From Trichodesmium erythraeum IMS101 (lineage in GTDB: Bacteria; Cyanobacteriota; Cyanobacteriia; Cyanobacteriales; Microcoleaceae): 32,000 nucleotides of DNA. Positions 7,762 through 32,000 of this stretch are shown piece by piece. The first letter of the stretch is position 1, and the number at the start of each line of letters is the position of its first letter. The DNA is taken from contig NC_008312.1 in assembly GCF_000014265.1 (NCBI RefSeq), positions 180,001 to 212,000 on the forward strand, given 5' to 3'. A program made the translations under genes and the position numbers. The notes beneath the pieces were generated by a model, which was not told where the DNA came from, searched no databases, and saw nothing but the letters and a program-made list of their open reading frames with translations.

Positions 7762-8174
7762 AAAAATAGAACTCTACTATGATGAATTACAAACTTAACT
7801 GTACTATAATTAATGACAAATTAAACTTGATTATCAATAATTATGCAATACCACTATATATGGTGTGTTTTACTGATTAATTCCTATTATTTAAACTACA
7901 ATTAGTTCCTTGGCGTAAATGATGTGAATAGTATAGTTTCGTAGTTCATATATGATGGAAAATAATAATTAATTTGTCTATATTTATCTACTGTTAATAC
8001 TACTAAAATTTTCAATTAAAAAAAAGATTAAGAACTGAAAAACATTAATTTCTCCAAGTAGCTCTCAATCTTAATTTGATATATCGAAAACTGAATAATA
8101 TCCCCTTCTCCTAATTTTTAACCAAATAATGAAGTTGTTTTTTTTGTAACTTTGATTTTTTTTTCAAAGCATAA

Positions 8175-16261: not shown

Positions 16262-17389
16262 ATGGTAAATAAAGAAAATTCAGACAAATATCAAGAGGAA
16301 GAAAATGATGAAGAGGAAGAATATGAAAAGGATGACTTAATTTACGAGCCGGAGGAAATTAATATTATTACTAGAGAACCTACAATTGAACAGTTGGTGA
16401 GAAGAATAGATGAAAAAGTTCTTGATTTAGCTCCAGATTTTCAGCGTCATTCTGATATATGGAAAGATGACGTTAAAAGTAGATTAATTGAATCTATTAT
16501 TATTAGGATTCCTTTACCAGCTTTTTATATTGATGGTACTAATGAAGACAACTGGTTAGTAGTAGATGGATTGCAAAGACTTTCAGCTTTAAAGCAGTTT
16601 ATGATTAAAAGTAATAATAATTTACGGTTAACAGGTTTAGAATATCTTGGGGAAGAACTTAATAATAAAAGCTATGAAGAATTACCTCGTAAATATCAAC
16701 GTCGTATTCAAGAAACTCAAGTTACTGTCTATCTAATTGCGGCAGGTACACCACCTAAAGTTAAGTATAATATTTTTAAACGTATTAATACAGGAGGAGA
16801 ACGTTTAACTCCTCAAGAAATACGCCATGCTCTTAATCCTGGGAAAGTCCTCAAATTATTATTTTACCTTGCTAAATCTCCAGAATTTACTAATATTATT
16901 AAGCTTGGTGAATCACGACTCAAACGTATGGATGATAGAGAATTTGTATTAGGTGCTTTAGCAGTTATGCTTACATCTAATTCTTATGAAAATTATACAA
17001 AAGATGGCAGAGAAGAATTTTTAGATAATGCGATGAAAAAAATTAATGGTTTATCTGATTCGGAAATTAAAACACTTGAAAATAAATTTAGAAATACTAT
17101 GATTATTTGCCAAGAAATATTTGGCAACGAAGCTTTCCGCAAGCCAAAAAAACAAAGAAAAAATCCAGTTAATAAAGCATTATGTGAAACTTGGTCATTT
17201 CATATTAGTCAGCTTAATTCTCAACAGATTCAGAAACTTAAAAATCGGAAGCCAGAATTATTAGATAAATTTGCCAAATATATAGATGATGACAAAGAAT
17301 TTTTGATGTCGATATCTCAAGCTCAAGATAAGATAGAATATCGTTTTAAAACTATTAAAAAAATTATCGAGGAAGTTCTAAATGATTAG
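16262..17389 (+). CDS. DUF262 (ParB-like NTPase/nuclease superfamily) domain protein, first gene of a defence-like operon
   Basis: 375-aa ORF. It has the DUF262 hallmark blocks PDFQRHSDIWKDDVKSRLIESIIIRIPLPAFYI and VVDGLQRLSAL (a DGQQR-type motif) and an acidic N-terminal tail. Its stop overlaps the next ORF's start by 8 nt. Confidence 0.85.
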   Translation: MVNKENSDKYQEEENDEEEEYEKDDLIYEPEEINIITREPTIEQLVRRIDEKVLDLAPDFQRHSDIWKDDVKSRLIESIIIRIPLPAFYIDGTNEDNWLVVDGLQRLSALKQFMIKSNNNLRLTGLEYLGEELNNKSYEELPRKYQRRIQETQVTVYLIAAGTPPKVKYNIFKRINTGGERLTPQEIRHALNPGKVLKLLFYLAKSPEFTNIIKLGESRLKRMDDREFVLGALAVMLTSNSYENYTKDGREEFLDNAMKKINGLSDSEIKTLENKFRNTMIICQEIFGNEAFRKPKKQRKNPVNKALCETWSFHISQLNSQQIQKLKNRKPELLDKFAKYIDDDKEFLMSISQAQDKIEYRFKTIKKIIEEVLND

Positions 17390-18488
17390 TTTATTACGTC
17401 TAAAAAATTTTAAACCTTTTTCTAATCAATCTCTATCATTTAGACCGTTAACTTTACTTTCTGGTCTGAATAGCACTGGTAAATTTTCTACTTTACAAGC
17501 ATTACTATTAATGTGTCAATCTTATCAACAAGGTCTCTTTGAAAATCAAGGTTTATCTCTAAATGGTGAATTAATTCCTATAGGTACTGCTCAAGATGTA
17601 CTATTTGAAGGAGCAAAAGACGATTTTATTAGCTTTGAAATTGTCTGGCAAAATGGCGTTCGAGGAGTTTAGAATTTCTCTTATGACCGAGAAAAAGATG
17701 TTCTAAATCTTAACTCGCCATCTGTTGCTTTTAATATTTATAAATCCAGTCTTTTTAATAAAAAAATTCACTATCTGCAAGCTGAATGTTTAGGTCCTCA
17801 CTTATTTTTATAAATGTCATATTTCCAATTTCAACAACTAGAAAATTTAGCCACTAAAGGAGAATACACAGCCCATTTTTTATCTGTAAATGAAAGTAAA
17901 ACTATACCAAATCGTAGCTTAGGACATTCACAAGCAAAATCCCTAGTTTTAAGAGATCAAGTTGAAGCTTGGATGGGAGAAATTAGCCCTGGTACACACT
18001 TACAAATAAATGTTAAACAAGATATAGATTTAATCAGTCTTCAATATTATTATGGAGATAGTAACCCTTATCGTTCTACTAATGTTGGATTTGGAATTAG
18101 TTACACTTTACCAATTATTGTAGCTATTCTTTCATCCCCACCAGAAACTTTAATTATAATAGAAAATCCTGAGGCACATCTTCATCCGAAAGGTCAAGCA
18201 AAAATGGGAGAATTATTAGCTCTTGCTGCTAGTTGTGGAATGCAAATTGTAGTTGAAACTCACAGCGACCATGTTTTAAATGGAATTAGATTAATAGTTT
18301 ATAGAGAAAAAGTTGACCCTAAAAAAGTTCAATTACACTATTTTGACAGCCAAAAACGAGGAAGAGAATTTATCACTGAAGTTATATCCCCACAGATAGA
18401 TCGAAACGGACGGATCGATAAATGGCCAGAAGGTTTTTTTGATGAGTGGGATAATAGTTTAGAAGCTCTTTTGGAACCCAGGGAATAA
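17382..18488 (+). pseudogene. AAA/ABC-type ATPase with a DUF3696-like C-terminal domain, interrupted by two in-frame stop codons
   Basis: ORFs 17382..17672 and 17814..18488 are in the same frame (432 nt apart). The 46 codons between them are stop-free and family-like (IHYLQAECLGP). The stops are TAG at 17670..17672 and TAA at 17811..17813. Walker A reads GLNSTGKFS, with Phe where Ser/Thr is expected. Walker B and downstream read IIIENPEAHLHP...VETHSDHVLNG. Confidence 0.8.
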
Positions 18489-18505
18489 TAAATATAGATT
18501 TAGAA

Positions 18506-19444
18506 ATGGCGCTTAATGAACTTTCTCTACAGACTCCTATTGCTGATATTTCCACAGCGCAAAAATTAATGTCAGAGTTAATTCAAACTTTACGCCAAGT
18601 AAAAAGCCTAGGTATAAGACTGATACTTCGGACTCACAGTAATATTAACAATATAGAACTTGTTTGTGATTATCCTATAGCAAGTTTGCGTAACGACAAA
18701 ATAGTAGATTTAGAGGAGCGTAGATTTTTCCGTAGTCTAACTCTAAAAGCTCCTTTTTGTGAGGATGTTGTCCCAGAAATTAAAAATAAATTTGATGTGT
18801 CTGAAGTTCGGCATCAAGGAACATTAGTAGAGGGTCTTCATTTTGCTTTAATTAGTGATTATCTTGCGGTTAGTTTATTATCTGAACCCAAATGGGATAC
18901 AGATTTTTTGGATATTCAGGTAACAGAATTAGACGAAAATATAGAGTTAATTGACCAGTCCGAAAAAATTGTTCATGCTAGTCGCAGTCGCCATGTAAAA
19001 CAACATACCGAATGGATTAAAAACCACATCGAAAATAAATTATTTGCCGGGCAAGTTGATGGAGAAGTCTTATGGGAAAGAAGACAAGAATTTTTTCCGA
19101 ATTTAATCTTCTGTGAACAAGTAGAACAACAGTTACAACAACTAAAGAGTGGCGACTTAATTTTGCAACAAATAAAGAAACGGTTATTAGACTTAGAAAA
19201 ATACTGTAAACTTTGGAAAAATGGAGCTTTTAATCCCAATATTTTACCAAGCAAAACAACTCCAGAAAGTGACTCAAGAATTCAAAAGTTTAGACAAGAA
19301 CTAACTATTAAATGTCCGGATACTAAAGAAAGTCTTTTTAGTTGGCATCTACGGATGACTCCTGGTGCTTGGCGACTTTATTTTTCTGAAGAGTTAGGAC
19401 CAGGAAAAATAATCATTGGCTATATAGGTACTAAGTTACTTTAG
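18506..19444 (+). CDS. hypothetical protein, third gene of the DUF262/ATPase operon, with a RelE/Gp49(HigB)-like C-terminal motif
   Basis: Intact 312-aa ORF starting 17 nt after the ATPase gene. I recognised no family for the N-terminal 240 aa. The C-terminus WHLRMTPGAWRLYFSEELGPGKIIIGYIGTKL resembles the R..YF....I.I..IG.H/K ending of RelE/ParE/Gp49 toxins. Confidence 0.7.
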   Translation: MALNELSLQTPIADISTAQKLMSELIQTLRQVKSLGIRLILRTHSNINNIELVCDYPIASLRNDKIVDLEERRFFRSLTLKAPFCEDVVPEIKNKFDVSEVRHQGTLVEGLHFALISDYLAVSLLSEPKWDTDFLDIQVTELDENIELIDQSEKIVHASRSRHVKQHTEWIKNHIENKLFAGQVDGEVLWERRQEFFPNLIFCEQVEQQLQQLKSGDLILQQIKKRLLDLEKYCKLWKNGAFNPNILPSKTTPESDSRIQKFRQELTIKCPDTKESLFSWHLRMTPGAWRLYFSEELGPGKIIIGYIGTKLL

Positions 19445-22232: not shown

Positions 22233-22853
22233 ATGACTCAGGATATAACCCCATGGTTAAATGAAATTAAAGCTCTTCAAGAAAAAATAGTTGAGCTACA
22301 AACAAAAGTAAATGTAACTCAAGATACTGTTTCTAAGTGGCTTAAGCTATATAATATTGAGGCTAAACAACGAAGAAATGAAGCTCAACAGAGTCAAGAA
22401 ACTATTGATAACTTAAAAACCAAACTTCAGAAACTACAAAAAGGTTTTTCTTTTGCTAAAGACAATAGAGATGAAGTTATGACAACTATTGAAGAGCAAA
22501 TTGAAGATTTACAAACCTTGGATCAATTTAAGGCCAAAATTATTGAGGTGAGTCAAGAACGCGATCGCTATCTTGAAAAACTCCAGGAATTAACCAAATG
22601 TCTTCAGCAAGAGCAAACCAGTCATGGAAATACTCGTAGAAGTTTAACAAATGCCTTAGCAGATGCAGTAGATCTTTTGGCCAAAGCTAAAGCAGCTAAA
22701 CAGCAAAAATCAGAAACTACTCCTAATATTCAGCTAAAAACAGAAATTAATCATCAAAATCAAACATCTGTCCAATTGCAGGAACGCTTTTATCCTGATA
22801 TTTCCCAGTTATTAAACAACGAAGAACCATCCCCCCGCTTACCTGAATATTAA
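22233..22853 (+). CDS. hypothetical coiled-coil protein
   Basis: 206-aa ORF with heptad-like, Q/E/K-rich sequence. It contains a HIP1 site (22562..22569), consistent with native DNA. No recognised family. Confidence 0.5.
   Translation: MTQDITPWLNEIKALQEKIVELQTKVNVTQDTVSKWLKLYNIEAKQRRNEAQQSQETIDNLKTKLQKLQKGFSFAKDNRDEVMTTIEEQIEDLQTLDQFKAKIIEVSQERDRYLEKLQELTKCLQQEQTSHGNTRRSLTNALADAVDLLAKAKAAKQQKSETTPNIQLKTEINHQNQTSVQLQERFYPDISQLLNNEEPSPRLPEY
22562..22569. repeat. HIP1 octamer GCGATCGC
   Basis: Exact match, inside the coiled-coil ORF. Confidence 0.95.
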
Positions 22854-27238: not shown

Positions 27239-27502
27239 ATGGCTAATAACTTACTGATTTCTGAGAGCTCATCTAGTTTTTCTAAAGCTGATTCTTCTTT
27301 AGATGCTGCTAGAAAAGTACATGAAGAAGGAAAATCAACTAATCAAACCCGTACCTTAAAACAGATGAAGTCCTTATATCAAACAGATCAACAAGTTAAG
27401 TTGCTTCACCTTGAGGCAGAAATAGAAACTCTCTTATTAGAATTACGAACCATTAGAGAACGCAATTTAGTCTCACTGATTGAAAAAGAAGTCAGCCTAT
27501 AA
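27239..27502 (+). CDS. possible small hypothetical protein (Ser-rich N-terminus, coiled-coil C-terminus)
   Basis: 87-aa ORF with no recognised family. A good intrinsic terminator follows about 210 nt downstream on the same strand. Confidence 0.3.
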   Translation: MANNLLISESSSSFSKADSSLDAARKVHEEGKSTNQTRTLKQMKSLYQTDQQVKLLHLEAEIETLLLELRTIRERNLVSLIEKEVSL

Positions 27503-27805: not shown

Positions 27806-28861
27806 ATGACTGTATCAATTAAAGAATCTGCTCAGGTCAATTCTAATGGTCAAAAGCACCAACTACAGCTAAAAGATATTGTAAAAACTTTGCCGCGAGA
27901 AGTTTTCATCAAAGATCGATGGAAAACATGGGCAATGGTGACAACCAATATATTCATGGTAATTTTAGGTTATTGGGGACTAATAATTGCACCTTGGTTT
28001 TTATTGCCCCTACTCTGGGTTTTCACTGGCACTGCATTAACAGGGTTTTTTGTTATTGGCCATGACTGCGGTCATCGCTCTTTTGCTAACCGTAGGTGGG
28101 TAAATGATTTAGTTGGTCATTTGGTGTTTTTACCCTTAATTTATCCCTTTCATGGTTGGCGAATAGGCCATAATCATCACCACAAACATACTAATAAGAT
28201 GGGTGAGGACAATGCTTGGCAACCTTGGTATCCAGAAGATTATGAGGTTGCTGGTAGTTCGATGCAGTTAGTGTATAGGGTTATGCGTGGTAGACTCTGG
28301 TGGTTAGCTTCTATTGCTCACTGGGCAGTTGTGCATTTTGATTGGAGAAAATTTGAGAAAAATAATAAGGAAGATGTAAAGTTTTCTGCATTGGTAGTTT
28401 TTGGGTTTAGTGCGATCGCATTTCCTTTGTTAATAGCTACAGTTGGTATGTGGGGTTTACTCAAGTTTTGGTTCATGCCTTGGTTAGTTTACCATTTCTG
28501 GATGAGTACATTTACTATTGTTCACCATACAGTACCAGAAATTCCCTTTACTCCTGTCCCAGAGTGGAATGAAGCAGAGGCTCAATTATTTGGTACAGTA
28601 CATTGTGATTATCCCCGTTGGGTAGAATTTCTATGTCATGATATTAATGTACATATTCCCCATCATATCTCAACAGGAATTCCTTCATATAATCTTAGGC
28701 AAGCACATCAATTTTTGAAGGATAAATGGGGAGATAAACTTTATGAAACTCATTTTTCTTGGTCTTTAATGAAAAAAATAACAGATCAGTGTCATTTGTA
28801 TAATCAGACTAAGTTCTATCTCAGTTTTAAAGAATATGATGCTCAGAAAGTTTCCCAGTAA
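27806..28861 (+). CDS. desA: membrane acyl-lipid fatty acid desaturase (Delta12 DesA-like; an omega-3 type cannot be excluded)
   Basis: 351-aa ORF with three histidine boxes (HDCGH, HNHHH, HIPHH) and TM segments typical of cyanobacterial DesA/DesB. It contains a HIP1 site. Confidence 0.8.
28412..28419. repeat. HIP1 octamer GCGATCGC
   Basis: Exact match, inside the desaturase gene. Confidence 0.95.
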
Positions 28862-28949
28862 TTTGAACTACACTCAGCTATCAGCTTCTAAAATTGTATA
28901 ACCGGGTTTGAATCTTAAATGTAGCAGTGGTATTATCTCATTATGGAGA

Positions 28950-29100
28950 AATTAATCAAACAATTATAGGGTAGTCTATACCTTAACTTACGCTTGTGAA
29001 CTGGACGAGGTCGGCCTCCAGTGGTTGAAGCAAGAAGCAAATATCTTTGACCACGCATTACCTACTTTTGCCTAGTGAGTGACGGAATTGTATAGGTATT
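28950..29100 (-). pseudogene. fragment of an IS5/IS4-superfamily transposase N-terminus (DUF4096-like)
   Basis: Minus-strand translation gives ..MRGQRYLLLASTTGGRPRPVHKRKL.. (coded by 28984..29058). This resembles the ..LLP....GGRPR...R.. motif at the start of IS5-family transposases. GC is locally elevated, and only a short piece survives. Confidence 0.35.
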
Positions 29101-29368
29101 GTACAGCAGAAAATACAAGTTTGCAGGCCTGAGAGATTATTGAGCTCGGTTATATCACAAGAAACTGTCCTATTCCCTCGAAAATAGAGAGACTCAAACG
29201 TTCTGTACAACTATTAATTCACTATCTGAAGTTTTGGGATGTGCCTATTGATAAAGATTCATCCCGTTCTTTCAGCCACACCTAAACTTTTATATAATCT
29301 GGCATTTTGACCTGATTTTTTTTTGTGGAATAATACCCAAAAATACAATCAAACAAATTTCGTATATT

Positions 29369-29380
29369 ATTGACATCAAT
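29369..29380. promoter_or_regulatory. palindrome ATTGA-CA-TCAAT overlapping a perfect TTGACA -35-like hexamer (29370..29375)
   Basis: Read directly from the sequence, 60 nt upstream of the parA-fusion ATG. Possible operator or centromere-like half of a pair. Confidence 0.35.
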
Positions 29381-29404
29381 TAACCCATTCTATCAAATTA
29401 GATG

Positions 29405-29415
29405 ATTGAATCAAT
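29405..29415. promoter_or_regulatory. palindrome ATTGA-A-TCAAT
   Basis: Second copy of the same half-sites, 36 nt downstream of the first and 25 nt upstream of the ATG at 29440. Confidence 0.35.
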
Positions 29416-29439
29416 GAAAAAATGACAAGTTAAGAAATA

Positions 29440-30882
29440 ATGAGCTTCAGTTTTAATCCAGATTTATGTCGCAATGAAAGCGAAGTAGAAAGCAAACTAA
29501 TTGTTAGTTATCTACTGCCGAAATTAGGATACAGTCTCGAACATTGGCATCAAGAAGTGACCTTAGGTAATATCCGTTTAGACTTTTTATCATTTGCTGC
29601 TCAGGAATTACCTTTCTCTTTGAATGGAGACTATCCTTTAGCTTTAGTAATGGAGGCAAAACACCCAAAAAAAAATTTAGACCGCCATCAACGACAAATT
29701 AGGCGATATTTAACAAGTTTGAATGTAAAATATGGCTTGTTAACTAATGCTAAAGAAATTAGGATTTATAAGAGAGAAAAAAATGACATTAAGTTAGTAT
29801 TTAAGTGTTGGGGAAGTGAAGTCGATTACAAAATAGAAGAAATTAAAGCATTAGTAGGTCGAGATTATTTGGGTAAAAATGTGAGTTCTGAGCAACCGGA
29901 AATTCGTCTAGAAGAAGCAGGGTTAAGTCACGCAAACACTACTCAATATAAGACAGAAAAAAATCTTATCAACACCCCTGAAAATAAGGTAAATGAAATG
30001 AATAAAAATAGTATTAATTCGATGAAAGTAATCGCTGTTTATCATAATAAAGGTGGAGTTGGAAAAACGACAACAGTAGTTAATTTAGCTGCTGCATTGA
30101 GTAAAAAAGGTTATCGAGTTTTGGTTATAGACTTAGATAGTCAGGCGAATACAACTTTTGCAACCGGTCTAATTAAATTTAGTGATGAGCAATTTGATGA
30201 TATAAAAGACTCCTATATTTATCATGTTTTGAGGTATGATGAATATTCTAGTATTTCGGAAGTATCTAGAGTTTCTAGGTTTAATGATCCAGAAATTGAT
30301 GTAGTTCCTTCTCATATAAATTTAATGGATGTTGAAGGTGAGTTGAACGGTCTAAGAAGTACTCAAACTGCACTAATAAAAAAATTAAAACTCGTAGAAG
30401 AAAAATATGATGTTGTTCTAATAGATACCCCACCTTCTTTGAATTTATATGCCTTTGTTCCTTTAGTCAGTGCTAACTATTTAATTATTCCTTCAGACTT
30501 AAAACCATTTGCTAATCAAGGTTTATTTAATGTTAAAAATTATCTTCAGCGGGATGTTAACCCCTTTCGGCAAATGATGAATAAACCAGATATAGAAATA
30601 TTAGGTGTACTGCCTTGTAAAATTAACCCTAATCATAGATTTGTACAACATACATTACCAAAACAGATTCAAGCAGTTTCTAAGCGTTACGATCTTAATA
30701 TTATGGAAACGGTTATATTTCAAAGAGAAGAACTTGCTAGGTGTGTTGATAAAACTCGTGAAGTTGGAAATTTGTTGATACCTGAACCTAGCTCTATATT
30801 TGACTATGCACTAGATTCTTCTTCTTCCCAAGAGTTTGAGTCATTAGCAAAAGAAGTATTAAACAAAATTGGACTACAATAA
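29440..30882 (+). CDS. fusion protein: N-terminal HsdR-N-like PD-(D/E)xK domain plus C-terminal ParA/Soj-family deviant Walker A ATPase
   Basis: 480-aa ORF. Residues 10 to 115 (NESEVESKLIVSYLLPKLGY...IRLDFLSF...LALVMEAKHPKKNLDRHQRQIRRYL...YGLLTNAKEIRIY) follow the type I restriction enzyme R-subunit N-terminal domain pattern, with D...ExK preserved. Residues 196 to 480 carry ParA motifs: VYHNKGGVGKTTT, LVIDLDSQAN and VVLIDTPPSL. Confidence 0.85.
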   Translation: MSFSFNPDLCRNESEVESKLIVSYLLPKLGYSLEHWHQEVTLGNIRLDFLSFAAQELPFSLNGDYPLALVMEAKHPKKNLDRHQRQIRRYLTSLNVKYGLLTNAKEIRIYKREKNDIKLVFKCWGSEVDYKIEEIKALVGRDYLGKNVSSEQPEIRLEEAGLSHANTTQYKTEKNLINTPENKVNEMNKNSINSMKVIAVYHNKGGVGKTTTVVNLAAALSKKGYRVLVIDLDSQANTTFATGLIKFSDEQFDDIKDSYIYHVLRYDEYSSISEVSRVSRFNDPEIDVVPSHINLMDVEGELNGLRSTQTALIKKLKLVEEKYDVVLIDTPPSLNLYAFVPLVSANYLIIPSDLKPFANQGLFNVKNYLQRDVNPFRQMMNKPDIEILGVLPCKINPNHRFVQHTLPKQIQAVSKRYDLNIMETVIFQREELARCVDKTREVGNLLIPEPSSIFDYALDSSSSQEFESLAKEVLNKIGLQ

Positions 30883-31856
30883 TGTTATTATCTCCAGAAT
30901 TTTTACTTGTAAAAGAAATTACTTCTAATGTATCTCGTTCCGAGTTTTCAGAGTCAGATTTAGAACAAGTTGCTCGGTTAATTTTAAAAGCTGAAGGTAC
31001 AATTAAACCTCTAGTTGTACGTACTATTGGTTGGGAATCTTACGAAGTAGTTAACGGACATTTTGAGTATTATGCTGCACTTAGAGCAAAAGAAATAAAT
31101 CCTCGTGATGGGGAAAGAATAGGAGCATTTATTATTGAAGGTCATAAAGCAGATGTGTTAGAAGAACAGGTGAAAATGCTCAGGAATATTTATCCTATAT
31201 CTGAGGACTTTATGAAAATTCCTAGAAATATTTCTCCTGTATCTGAAGCTCCTACAATTCAAGAAGAAGGTAGAATCAATTTAAGTAATTTAGATAAGCT
31301 GCTAGATCAAAAATTGCAATTAATAACAACAAAGTTAGATCGATTAAATGCATCATCTCCTATTGATTATCAATCTCAAGAAAATAAGATCATAGAGCAA
31401 AAACTGGAGAATATTGAAAGTAAAGTTAACCAGTTATTACCAAAAACAAATATCACAGAAATTGAGGAAATTCTGAATAATAAACTAGAAATTATACGTC
31501 AAAAAATTAGTAATCTATCTAAGCAGGAAGCTTTAGATATATTAGCAAAAAATAAAACAGCTTTAAATCGATATTTAGAAGCTATTGATCGTGAATCTAA
31601 TCAACTACAAAGAGTTAATTTGTTAACAGTAGAAACAGAAGAGGAAATCCAACAAGCTTTCCAGCGTAACAATATAAGAGGAGGAAATGAGGCATGGAAA
31701 GCAATTGAATATTGGCGAAAACCAGGTAAAAAGCTGACATGGGAAAATTTAGAAAAATCAGCAAAGACAGCAAGAAAAGGTCATCAAGATAAAATACAAG
31801 GATTTGCAAAAGGTACTTACAACAATTTAAAAAAGATTGGCTATATACCTGATTAA
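30882..31856 (+). CDS. ParB-N-terminal-domain-like protein with a long coiled coil and a degenerate arginine patch
   Basis: 324-aa ORF whose start overlaps the upstream stop (TAATG). The N-terminal part, LVKEITSNVSRSEFSESDLEQVARLILKAEGTIKPLVVRTIGWESYEVVNGHFEYYAALRAKEIN, follows the ParB/Srx layout, but GERRxRA is replaced by NGHFEYYAA. The central region is coiled coil and the C-terminal region is basic. Confidence 0.7.
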   Translation: MLLSPEFLLVKEITSNVSRSEFSESDLEQVARLILKAEGTIKPLVVRTIGWESYEVVNGHFEYYAALRAKEINPRDGERIGAFIIEGHKADVLEEQVKMLRNIYPISEDFMKIPRNISPVSEAPTIQEEGRINLSNLDKLLDQKLQLITTKLDRLNASSPIDYQSQENKIIEQKLENIESKVNQLLPKTNITEIEEILNNKLEIIRQKISNLSKQEALDILAKNKTALNRYLEAIDRESNQLQRVNLLTVETEEEIQQAFQRNNIRGGNEAWKAIEYWRKPGKKLTWENLEKSAKTARKGHQDKIQGFAKGTYNNLKKIGYIPD

Positions 31857-32000
31857 TTGTGAAAAAATAATTACTAATTAATAAATAATCAGCTTTTCTT
31901 TTTTTTTACTTTTGGTAAAAAAAGAATGCTTAACTTGGGTGAAACTTCAATTATTAAGTAATTAAAATATGCTTAATAGCTTTTTTGATAACTATAGCAA

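Follow-up and report, generated by a model that had tools for sequence, protein, structure and literature searches.

A conserved cyanobacterial gene pair joins a predicted restriction-type nuclease domain to an exchangeable ParA/ParB-like cassette

Results

We analyzed a stretch of 32,000 nucleotides of Trichodesmium erythraeum IMS101 (contig NC_008312.1, positions 180,001 to 212,000; hereafter the window), which has a G+C content of about 31%. Close to its right end lie two genes, one for a fusion of a predicted nuclease-fold domain with a ParA-type ATPase (hereafter the fusion) and one for a ParB-like protein (the partner; Table 1). At their junction, CAATAATGTTA, the TAA stop of the first gene and the ATG start of the second have one base in common. 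A preliminary description of this DNA, made from its letters alone, had proposed an HsdR-N-like domain fused to ParA and coupled by TAATG to a ParB-like protein. Both open reading frames (ORFs) were found in the places it had assigned to them, and all of the motifs it had quoted (NESEVESKLI, RLDFLSF, VMEAKHP, QIRRYL, LLTNAKEIRIY, KGGVGKTTT, DLDSQAN, LIDTPPS and NGHFEYYAA) are contained in the translations. The domain assignments were borne out as well, as the Pfam families HSDR_N_2, AAA_31 and ParB_N all score above their cut-offs.

Table 1. Features of the gene pair and its upstream region, in window positions.
Feature	Position	Strand	Basis or context
Conserved upstream block with likely promoter (TTGACA at 29370-29375)	29330-29439	+	Alignment of 10 upstream regions
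Fusion gene, 480 aa: predicted PD-(D/E)xK (HSDR_N_2) domain, linker, ParA ATPase	29440-30882	+	ORF call, Pfam, alignment
N-terminal predicted nuclease-fold domain, aa 1-144	29440-29871	+	Pfam HSDR_N_2, invariant columns, AlphaFold2, Foldseek
Catalytic-type residues D48, E72 and K74	29581-29583, 29653-29655, 29659-29661	+	Fusion N-domain
Low-complexity linker of variable length, aa 145-194	29872-30021	+	Homologue alignment
ParA/Soj-type ATPase domain, aa 195-480; left part of the exchangeable cassette	30022-30879	+	AAA_31, PDB relatives
Deviant Walker A motif KGGVGKT with signature lysine K204	30049-30069	+	In the ATPase domain, with DLDSQAN and LIDTPP
Partner gene, 324 aa; start overlaps the fusion stop (TAATG)	30882-31856	+	ORF call
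Partner ParB/Srx-fold domain, aa 1-103; right part of the exchangeable cassette	30882-31190	+	ParB_N, Foldseek, hhalign
GHFEYYAA in place of GERRxRA	31056-31079	+	Partner ParB/Srx-fold domain
Partner variable region, aa 104-244: disorder and long helices	31191-31613	+	AlphaFold2, alignment
Partner C-terminal small helical domain, aa 245-324 (AIEYWRKPGKKLTWENL...GFAKGTY)	31614-31853	+	AlphaFold2

Sixteen full-length homologues of the fusion protein were aligned, taken from Trichodesmium, Okeania, Dapis, Nostoc, Chlorogloeopsis, Symploca, Microcoleus, Aphanothece, Coleofasciculus, Funiculus and Oscillatoria. Its first 142 residues are the most conserved stretch in this alignment and include a nearly invariant helix, CRNESEVESKLIVxYLLPxLGY. 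D48, E72 and K74 do not vary among the 16 homologues, which also holds with sequences of the Thioploca, Crocosphaera and Trichothermofontia types included, and most members of a second, more distant clade keep this triad too. HSDR_N_2 matches residues 19-116 with 27.2 bits (cut-off 25, E = 4.3e-6), and HSDR_N and PDDEXK_3 match the protein below threshold. Because most of the 120 best homologues carry a precomputed match to PF13588 or PF04313 and the triad is invariant, we consider the HSDR_N_2 match to be beyond chance. AlphaFold2 modelled residues 1-144 with a predicted local distance difference test score (pLDDT) of 82.9 and an alpha-beta-beta-beta-alpha-beta core, composed of a helix at residues 13-28, three strands with D48 and E72-x-K74, a helix at 80-93 and further strands. 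In this predicted structure the core is as expected for the PD-(D/E)xK nuclease fold. The best Foldseek matches in the PDB are restriction-type nuclease domains with E-values of at least 6e-3 and template modelling (TM) scores of 0.45-0.58, namely a putative restriction-endonuclease-domain protein (9y1l), BpuSI (3s1s), a Vibrio HsdR fragment (3h1t), EcoR124I HsdR and DrdV (7lvv_C, TM score 0.58). A profile of the N-domain returned only chance matches among PDB sequences (E of at least 0.6). Given the Foldseek E-values, the assignment leans on Pfam, motif and topology together. The PD-(D/E)xK domain is predicted from its residues to be catalytically intact. P0354, a distant, non-cyanobacterial-looking protein that resembles the fusion, was excluded from the family, as its triad is degenerate and it comes without a ParB partner.

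The linker that follows is 33 to about 120 residues long among the 16 homologues and is not conserved in sequence. AAA_31 covers residues 195-370 with 178.9 bits (E = 1.2e-52), CbiA scores 72.4 bits, and the domain has all the hallmarks of the ParA/MinD group, i.e. the signature lysine K204, the Walker lysine K209 and the motifs DLDSQAN and LIDTPP. ParA/Soj proteins are the nearest solved structures (E = 2e-21 to 1e-15). ResIII matched the fusion at the level of the P-loop only (E = 0.077); an HsdR-type superfamily 2 (SF2) motor was not found in the fusion, nor a methyltransferase or specificity gene in the window or in related loci.

In NCBIfam, no model attained its cut-off on either protein, partition models included. 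PHROGs and PADLOC-DB 2.0 gave domain-level matches only (mad2, Cas4, endonuclease), the partial PADLOC matches being PDC-M28B over 49 residues, mad2 at residues 35-120 and Cas4. mad2 is the methyltransferase of the MADS system (bioRxiv 10.1101/2023.03.30.534895), and the likeness is to its nuclease-type N-domain. Membership in a catalogued defense system was rejected on these grounds. Databases name the fusion 'AAA family ATPase', 'chromosome partitioning protein ParA' or 'BcsQ' and the partner 'hypothetical protein', and we found no description of either protein in the literature searched, which included a PD-(D/E)xK census and work on McdAB evolution, cyanobacterial morphogenesis, nucleoside triphosphate-dependent conflict systems and MADS. 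The view that the pair had no assigned function therefore held against literature, NCBIfam, PADLOC and PHROGs alike.

In the partner, ParB_N matches residues 18-69 with 27.9 bits (cut-off 26.3), and AlphaFold2 confidently modelled residues 1-103 as a ParB/Srx fold. Foldseek aligned this part over about 100 residues with the N-domains of Noc, ParB, KorB and PadC (E = 1.7e-5 to 1e-3; PDB entries 6ryk, 7ol9 and 8qa8 among the matches). The preliminary description had pointed out that the GERRxRA arginine patch is missing, and this is what we found: hhalign placed GHFEYYAA of the partner on GERRFRAA of Bacillus subtilis Spo0J, and the family consensus at the patch is G[HD]FEYYAA with an invariant glutamate and no conserved arginine. 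Judged from these alignments, the CTP-holding arginines of canonical ParB are gone in the partner family. No helix-turn-helix (HTH) family was detected in the partner by Pfam, and beyond residue 103 the model consists of disorder and long helices. A coiled coil and a basic tail had been proposed for this part. The former agrees with helices at residues 134-242, predicted with low confidence in a region of variable length among homologues (pLDDT 29-74), but in place of the latter residues 245-324 form a confidently modelled small helical domain (pLDDT 85-96).

This C-terminal domain holds the place that HhH (helix-hairpin-helix), Rho_N or SAP modules take in orthologues. Among 20 family members scanned with Pfam, we found Rho_N in five, HHH_6 in four, SAP in two and HHH_3 in one; orthologue C-termini may also be of the HhH DUF655 type or of the type seen in the window (AIEYW..LTWENL..GFAKGTY). 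Orthologous partners with HhH or Rho_N/SAP thus end in a small module that is predicted to bind nucleic acids without sequence specificity. The idea that the window's own domain is a degenerate ComEA-like HhH was dropped, as hhalign against HhH-type orthologues gave a probability of 1.7% (E = 0.029). A protein named after Trichodesmium erythraeum 21-75 matches the entire partner at 100% identity.

A pattern scan of one-genome-per-species contigs located the N-domain signature at 490 places, and the best 80 of these loci were analyzed by calling and clustering their ORFs. Every taxon-named locus among the 80 is cyanobacterial (Oscillatoriales, Nostocales and others), a few being labelled 'uncultured bacterium'. 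Nostoc punctiforme NIES-2108 is one carrier of the fusion. The top 120 database matches are full-length fusion homologues, again cyanobacterial wherever named, and a profile search of 1.84 billion representative proteins gave 35 clusters at E ≤ 1e-30, all full-length ones with a ParA domain. A second group of fusions with a weaker N-domain match (42-62 bits) has Myxacorys and Pseudocalidococcus, both cyanobacterial, as its named members; even in Pseudocalidococcus, which represents a deeply divergent clade, the fusion is followed by an overlapping ParB_N/HhH gene and lies among metabolic genes. The apparent exceptions are a fragment labelled Sericytochromatia and a partial protein in a metagenome-assembled genome (MAG) of Thioploca. 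In this MAG, the sole non-cyanobacterial context seen, the fusion is cut by the contig end and comes after an AAA_15/AAA_21 ATPase and DUF4276, a pair typical of defense loci (L090:6190-7974).

The fusion was recovered in 76 of the 80 loci and the partner, downstream of it, in 75. In 55 of these 75 loci the gap from fusion stop to partner start is -1 or -4. Several homologues lie on chromosomal contigs of 5.7-7.5 Mb. In tblastn searches of PLSDB, no plasmid covered at least 80% of the fusion, the matches being to plain ParA proteins at 27-33% identity, and the N-domain was not found on any cyanobacterial plasmid; its sole matches there, on plasmids of Borreliella and haloarchaea, are to genes with HsdR-N, type I restriction or N-6 methylase annotations. 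None of the IMG/VR viral contigs encodes the N-domain. Upstream, a PALP enzyme, a protein of about 87 residues and a fatty-acid desaturase recur in 54-59 of the 80 loci, ordered as in the window. The N-domain has a mean pairwise identity of 76% and the neighboring desaturase one of 80%, compared with 69% in the ATPase domain and 60% in the N-domain of the partner. Overall, the pair is a vertically inherited chromosomal operon, largely confined to cyanobacteria and present in hundreds of species.

Along this operon, isolates of a single genus differ unevenly. Between Dapis M229 and M172 the flanks are 82-95% and the N-domains 91% identical, whereas identity is 61% in the ATPase and 37.5% in the first 100 residues of the partner, and 72% in the rest of it. 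The corresponding values for Okeania SIO2B3 and SIO3I5 are 73-92%, 88.7%, 60.8%, 39.6% and 58.7%. N-domain, ATPase and first 100 partner residues are 96%, 56% and 42% identical between Chlorogloeopsis PCC 6912 and ULAP02, and 90%, 55% and 45.5% between two Nostoc species. In Dapis, sliding-window DNA identity starts at 90-98%, drops to 55-60% at about nt 700 of the fusion gene and returns to 85-91% at about codon 125 of the partner, which puts the right breakpoint roughly 20 codons beyond the end of the ParB-like domain, near residue 125. In Chlorogloeopsis it falls from 95-99% to 55-65% at the linker/ATPase junction and stays at this level through the rest of the partner. Divergence in place cannot make such sharp steps, and we therefore ascribe them to replacement by recombination. 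From these profiles, the ATPase domain and the ParB-like domain of the partner are replaced together as one cassette, and the DNA-binding end of the partner is exchangeable as well, while the nuclease domain and the flanks stay conserved. Chlorogloeopsis ULAP02 has a cassette that clusters with those of Nostoc spongiaeforme and Okeania SIO1I7, and the cassette of PCC 6912 falls together with those of Nostoc WHI, Kastovskya and others. The cassette classes are old and common to different orders.

Over 72 loci, identities of the ATPase and of the partner N-domain are correlated with a Spearman coefficient of 0.92 (0.89 on a non-redundant subset, 0.88 when controlling for N-domain identity of the fusion). 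At ATPase identities of at least 80% the partner N-domain is always at least 71% identical, and at 50-60% it never exceeds 60%, even though the nuclease-type N-domains reach 96%. No hybrid locus, with the ATPase of one class and the partner of another, occurs among the 72. The N-domain can itself be the odd one out: between the window and a Trichodesmium MAG, identity is 97.6% in the ATPase domain and 82% in the N-domain. Both the position of the left breakpoint at a domain junction and the lack of hybrid pairs fit a matched interface of ATPase and regulator.

About 110 nt upstream of the fusion start codon are kept among Trichodesmium, Okeania and Dapis (10 loci aligned) and look promoter-like. 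Position 29307, where the preliminary description had let the locus begin, is a promoter-like TTGACC..AATAAT site in a promoter scan. In most relatives the upstream block contains a single imperfect inverted repeat, TTGTCAAGATTGACA, the left arm of which is degenerate in the window. We found no iterated parS-like repeats at the locus, and a repeat scan of 28860-32000 gave only short two-copy repeats at chance level. By sequence, a ParABS-type centromere is thus not present at the locus itself; distant centromere sites may exist. Highly iterated palindrome 1 (HIP1), GCGATCGC, lies at window positions 721, 2546, 15903, 22561, 25237 and 28412. In L015 and L016, both with cassettes of class B, an insertion of about 170-190 nt (near 8007) separates the conserved promoter block from the fusion start codon; it has internal short repeats, TAACTGATAAC and GCAGTTACGACC, and resembles a miniature mobile element.

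Ordinary chromosomal genes of the window encode a urea/branched-chain-type ABC transporter, a CobN/Mg-chelatase, a GHL10 hydrolase, a BrkB-family protein, the PALP enzyme and the fatty-acid desaturase. Two proteins without a clear Pfam family are syntenic as well, the 87-residue protein (27239-27502) in 57 of the 80 loci and a 206-residue coiled-coil protein (22233-22853) in 39. Downstream of the pair, a GT2 and a GT4 glycosyltransferase are seen again in Chlorogloeopsis, Nostoc, Scytonema, Kastovskya and Aphanothece, as is a large membrane protein. Near the locus we found no replication, integrase or transfer genes, and none of the neighborhoods examined had carboxysome genes.

Two contextual claims of the preliminary description did not survive. 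What it had called an IS5-like fragment is at most a candidate relic of some 20 codons (GRGRPPVVEARSKYL, about 28990-29040) that is not repeated elsewhere in the window. It had also suggested an island or mobile context continuing past position 32000. Longer Trichodesmium contigs have the membrane protein and glycosyltransferases there, so that no island continues, and neither the housekeeping synteny nor the searches for plasmid and viral copies point to one. Its proposal that this is not a plain partition locus was upheld by chromosomal synteny, by the lack of plasmid or viral homologues in PLSDB and IMG/VR and by the lack of a parS-like array.

Several further neighbors were recorded. Nuclease and NTPase genes (Uma2, XisH/XisI, Cas4-like/KAP) adjoin the pair in certain lineages and none of them is universal. 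In Nostocales, Aphanothece, Kastovskya and Oscillatoria PCC 10802, the upstream place of the PALP, 87-residue and desaturase genes is taken by a stand-alone ParA-family gene of 300 residues that is transcribed divergently from the fusion (L052:6573-7478, also L046, L050, L060, L076 and L083); Trichodesmium, Okeania and Dapis lack this gene. Immediately downstream of the pair, one Microcoleus/Tychonema locus (L027:10830-11924) and 32 others contain a second ParB_N-coiled-coil-Rho_N gene of about 364 residues, a paralogue of the partner that is often followed by a Uma2 nuclease and XisI/XisH-like genes. In several unrelated genera, Okeania and Dapis among them, the pair adjoins a trio on the opposite strand, made up of a Cas4-like PD-(D/E)xK protein with a C-terminal cysteine cluster, a KAP/AAA_16 NTPase of about 665 residues and a winged-helix-like protein of about 275 residues (L012:10623-14891; also L008, L016, L017, L021-L024, L026, L050 and L051). 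In the window itself, a possible defense cluster at 16262-19444 lies about 10 kb upstream of the pair with housekeeping genes in between. Its members are a GmrSD_N/DUF262 protein (16262-17389), an ORF with only the C-terminal portion of an AAA_21/AAA_15 ATPase plus DUF3696 (17814-18488), which lacks the N-terminal portion and may be frameshifted, and a 312-residue protein without a Pfam match (18506-19444).

Discussion

ParA-type ATPases and ParB-like proteins encoded by adjacent genes are commonly read as partition systems. Here, we describe such a pair in which the ATPase carries a predicted restriction-type nuclease domain, the ParB-like protein has lost its CTP-holding arginines, and the two putatively interacting domains are exchanged as a unit. 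In our view it is a pair of the ParA/ParB type, whose ParB has decayed and whose effector is without precedent, rather than a categorically new system. Our preferred reading, which we hold tentatively, is that of a host-genome maintenance machine built from a conserved nuclease-fold effector and an exchangeable ParA/ParB-like switch. ATPase domain and ParB-like domain would form a matched, self-contained nucleotide switch, in which ATP-dependent ParA dimers bind DNA and the partner, itself kept on DNA by its C-terminal module, touches the ATPase and controls hydrolysis and release. ATP-driven dimerization would also pair two tethered nuclease-fold domains on DNA, a step that we infer from ParA proteins and from restriction enzymes with tethered cleavage domains. 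The N-domain would act as the effector and bind or cut a substrate common to all carriers, whereas the switch would need only to match itself and to bind DNA in general. The likely task would be the maintenance, organization or processing of the cell's own multi-copy chromosome. A role on the host chromosome is favored by the core-like, syntenic character of the locus and its absence from mobile elements, and by a 2020 review, according to which cyanobacteria lack a classical ParABS system (PMC7766704).

A number of observations weigh against such a role. The intact triad together with the allelic cassette mosaic keeps a function in conflict alive, as the D...ExK motif appears intact in a domain family that is best known from restriction enzymes, and as trans-specific allelic classes in a mosaic are a trait of conflict or incompatibility systems more than of housekeeping genes. 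The nuclease fold has weak Foldseek support (E of at least 6e-3), and the fusion gene of the Thioploca MAG adjoins the defense-like AAA_15/DUF4276 pair. Moreover, the joint replacement of the two segments could be explained in part by their adjacency on the DNA and not by a protein interface.

The main competing explanation is a chromosomally fixed innate defense or exclusion system, which we judge to be rather unlikely but a serious rival. It would have ParA-ATP dimers assemble on DNA without a host mark or on incoming plasmid or phage DNA and thereby pair the tethered HsdR-type nucleases, with the ParB-like partner either shielding self DNA or licensing cleavage; type IIG and IIS restriction enzymes must likewise pair their cleavage domains. 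The diversity of cassettes would then be the outcome of an arms race with inhibitors, encoded by phages or plasmids, that act on the interface of ParA and its partner. The invariant triad, the type I, IIG and IIL restriction nuclease domains as nearest folds, the domain-level PADLOC and PHROG matches (mad2, Cas4, endonuclease), the allelic replacement of cassettes whose classes are common to different orders and the nuclease/NTPase neighbors of some lineages (Uma2, XisH/XisI, Cas4-like with KAP/AAA_16, and AAA_15 with DUF4276 in Thioploca) all agree with defense. On the other hand, the locus is not patchy but core-like and syntenic, it is flanked by housekeeping genes, and the nuclease domain evolves as slowly as a neighboring metabolic enzyme. 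This vertical conservation argues against a typical defense system, as do the lack of a system-level match in PADLOC, the lack of a linked methyltransferase or specificity gene and the absence of the family from plasmids (PLSDB) and viral contigs (IMG/VR). An ordinary partition locus of a plasmid, an integrative and conjugative element (ICE) or a prophage that became integrated here is extremely unlikely. The order of a ParA gene and a ParB_N gene and the possible insertion sequence (IS) relic upstream would suit it, but plasmid and viral homologues, iterated repeats near the locus and nearby replication, integrase or transfer genes were all missing from our searches, glycosyltransferases follow downstream, and the chromosomal neighborhood is constant across genera. 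The PLSDB, IMG/VR and synteny data effectively rule out both a plasmid/ICE partition locus and a phage or prophage origin.

It is also conceivable, though unlikely, that the ATPase itself reads a 'centromere': the N-domain would be a site-, modification- or structure-specific DNA anchor, perhaps for HIP1 or its methylation, leaving the partner as a regulator of the ATPase only. Conservation of the N-domain extends well past the catalytic residues, with about 25 near-invariant residues in a run, and the partner has no sequence-specific HTH. HIP1 occurs six times in the 32-kb window versus 0.03 times expected from shuffles, i.e. a 200-fold excess, and all clade-1 loci of more than 8 kb contain it; the 13-kb locus of Pseudocalidococcus (L088), a member of clade 2 with a different N-domain sequence, does not. 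However, most cyanobacteria have HIP1, and its co-occurrence with the pair, given as per-locus counts only, is nearly uninformative and was not used as evidence. The kept catalytic residues would be unusual for a pure binding module. A bolder version, which we consider quite unlikely, sees in the pair the missing segregation or genome-maintenance device of polyploid cyanobacteria, with a logic unlike that of ParABS and, on the ATPase, a restriction-fold reader of a genome-wide mark such as HIP1 or its methylation, or of DNA structure. A ParB-like protein reduced to an interchangeable ATPase regulator would explain how cassettes can pass between distant lineages with the reader unchanged. Positioning of a non-DNA cargo in the manner of ParA/MinD and McdAB, with the partner as cargo adaptor, is very unlikely. 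ParA-family systems do place many kinds of cargo, the middle region of the partner is long, helical and coiled-coil-like, and glycosyltransferase and membrane-protein genes recur nearby; yet the terminal modules of the partner (HhH, Rho_N, SAP) are of nucleic-acid-binding types, the effector domain is of nuclease fold, and the partner has no McdB-like features.

Among the characterized systems close to the pair are the chromosomal and plasmid ParA/Soj-ParB systems (ParABS). The pair shares with these the deviant Walker A ATPase, a translationally coupled ParB/Srx-fold gene directly downstream, and the co-variation of ATPase and partner N-domain expected of a cognate pair. It differs from them in the PD-(D/E)xK domain on the ATPase, in its absence from plasmids, in the lack of a parS array and in a partner without GERRxRA arginines and without HTH. 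An extra DNA-related N-terminal domain is also a feature of type Ia ParA proteins such as P1 ParA and F SopA. Theirs is a winged HTH DNA-binding extension, whereas the extra domain of the fusion would have a restriction-endonuclease fold with intact catalytic residues and a long disordered linker. With HsdR and the type IIG and IIL enzymes (EcoR124I HsdR, V. vulnificus HsdR 3h1t, BpuSI 3s1s, DrdV 7lvv) the fusion has HSDR_N_2, the D...ExK core and the tethering of a nuclease to a DNA-binding motor or reader in common. In contrast to these enzymes it has a ParA ATPase instead of an SF2 translocase, methyltransferase or specificity subunit, and structural similarity is limited to TM scores of 0.45-0.58.

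For the partner, Myxococcus PadC, Noc and KorB are precedents of a ParB/Srx fold used outside classical centromere clamping, and PadC in addition of a protein that serves a ParA-type ATPase as adaptor or regulator. All three keep CTP binding, whereas G[HD]FEYYAA replaces the arginine patch in the partner, and the C-terminal modules differ. Cyanobacteria also possess McdAB, a ParA-type ATPase with a small coiled-coil-containing partner (PMC7182216). Unlike the pair, McdA has no nuclease domain and McdB no ParB_N, and the partner described here has nucleic-acid-binding modules. In its evolutionary pattern only, the joint replacement, between close relatives, of the 3' portion of a gene and the 5' portion of its neighbor, with ancient classes common to different taxa, is reminiscent of polymorphic toxin/immunity cassettes and of hsdS domain shuffling in type I systems; what the pair exchanges, unlike toxin/immunity cassettes, is an ATPase domain and a regulator domain.

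The presented findings point to a conserved chromosomal, DNA-directed ParA/ParB-like gene pair that bears on the organization and inheritance of cyanobacterial chromosomes. Its partner is a clear example of a ParB/Srx domain whose CTP switch is gone but whose coupling to a ParA protein persists. As a natural experiment, the mosaic of cassettes could serve to map how specific the interface between ParA and its partner is. If the nuclease is active, the fusion would be a ParA-gated nuclease, for which our searches found no precedent. And if the defense reading turned out to be true, the ecologically dominant nitrogen fixer Trichodesmium and its relatives would possess an unusually ancient, chromosomally fixed immune module.

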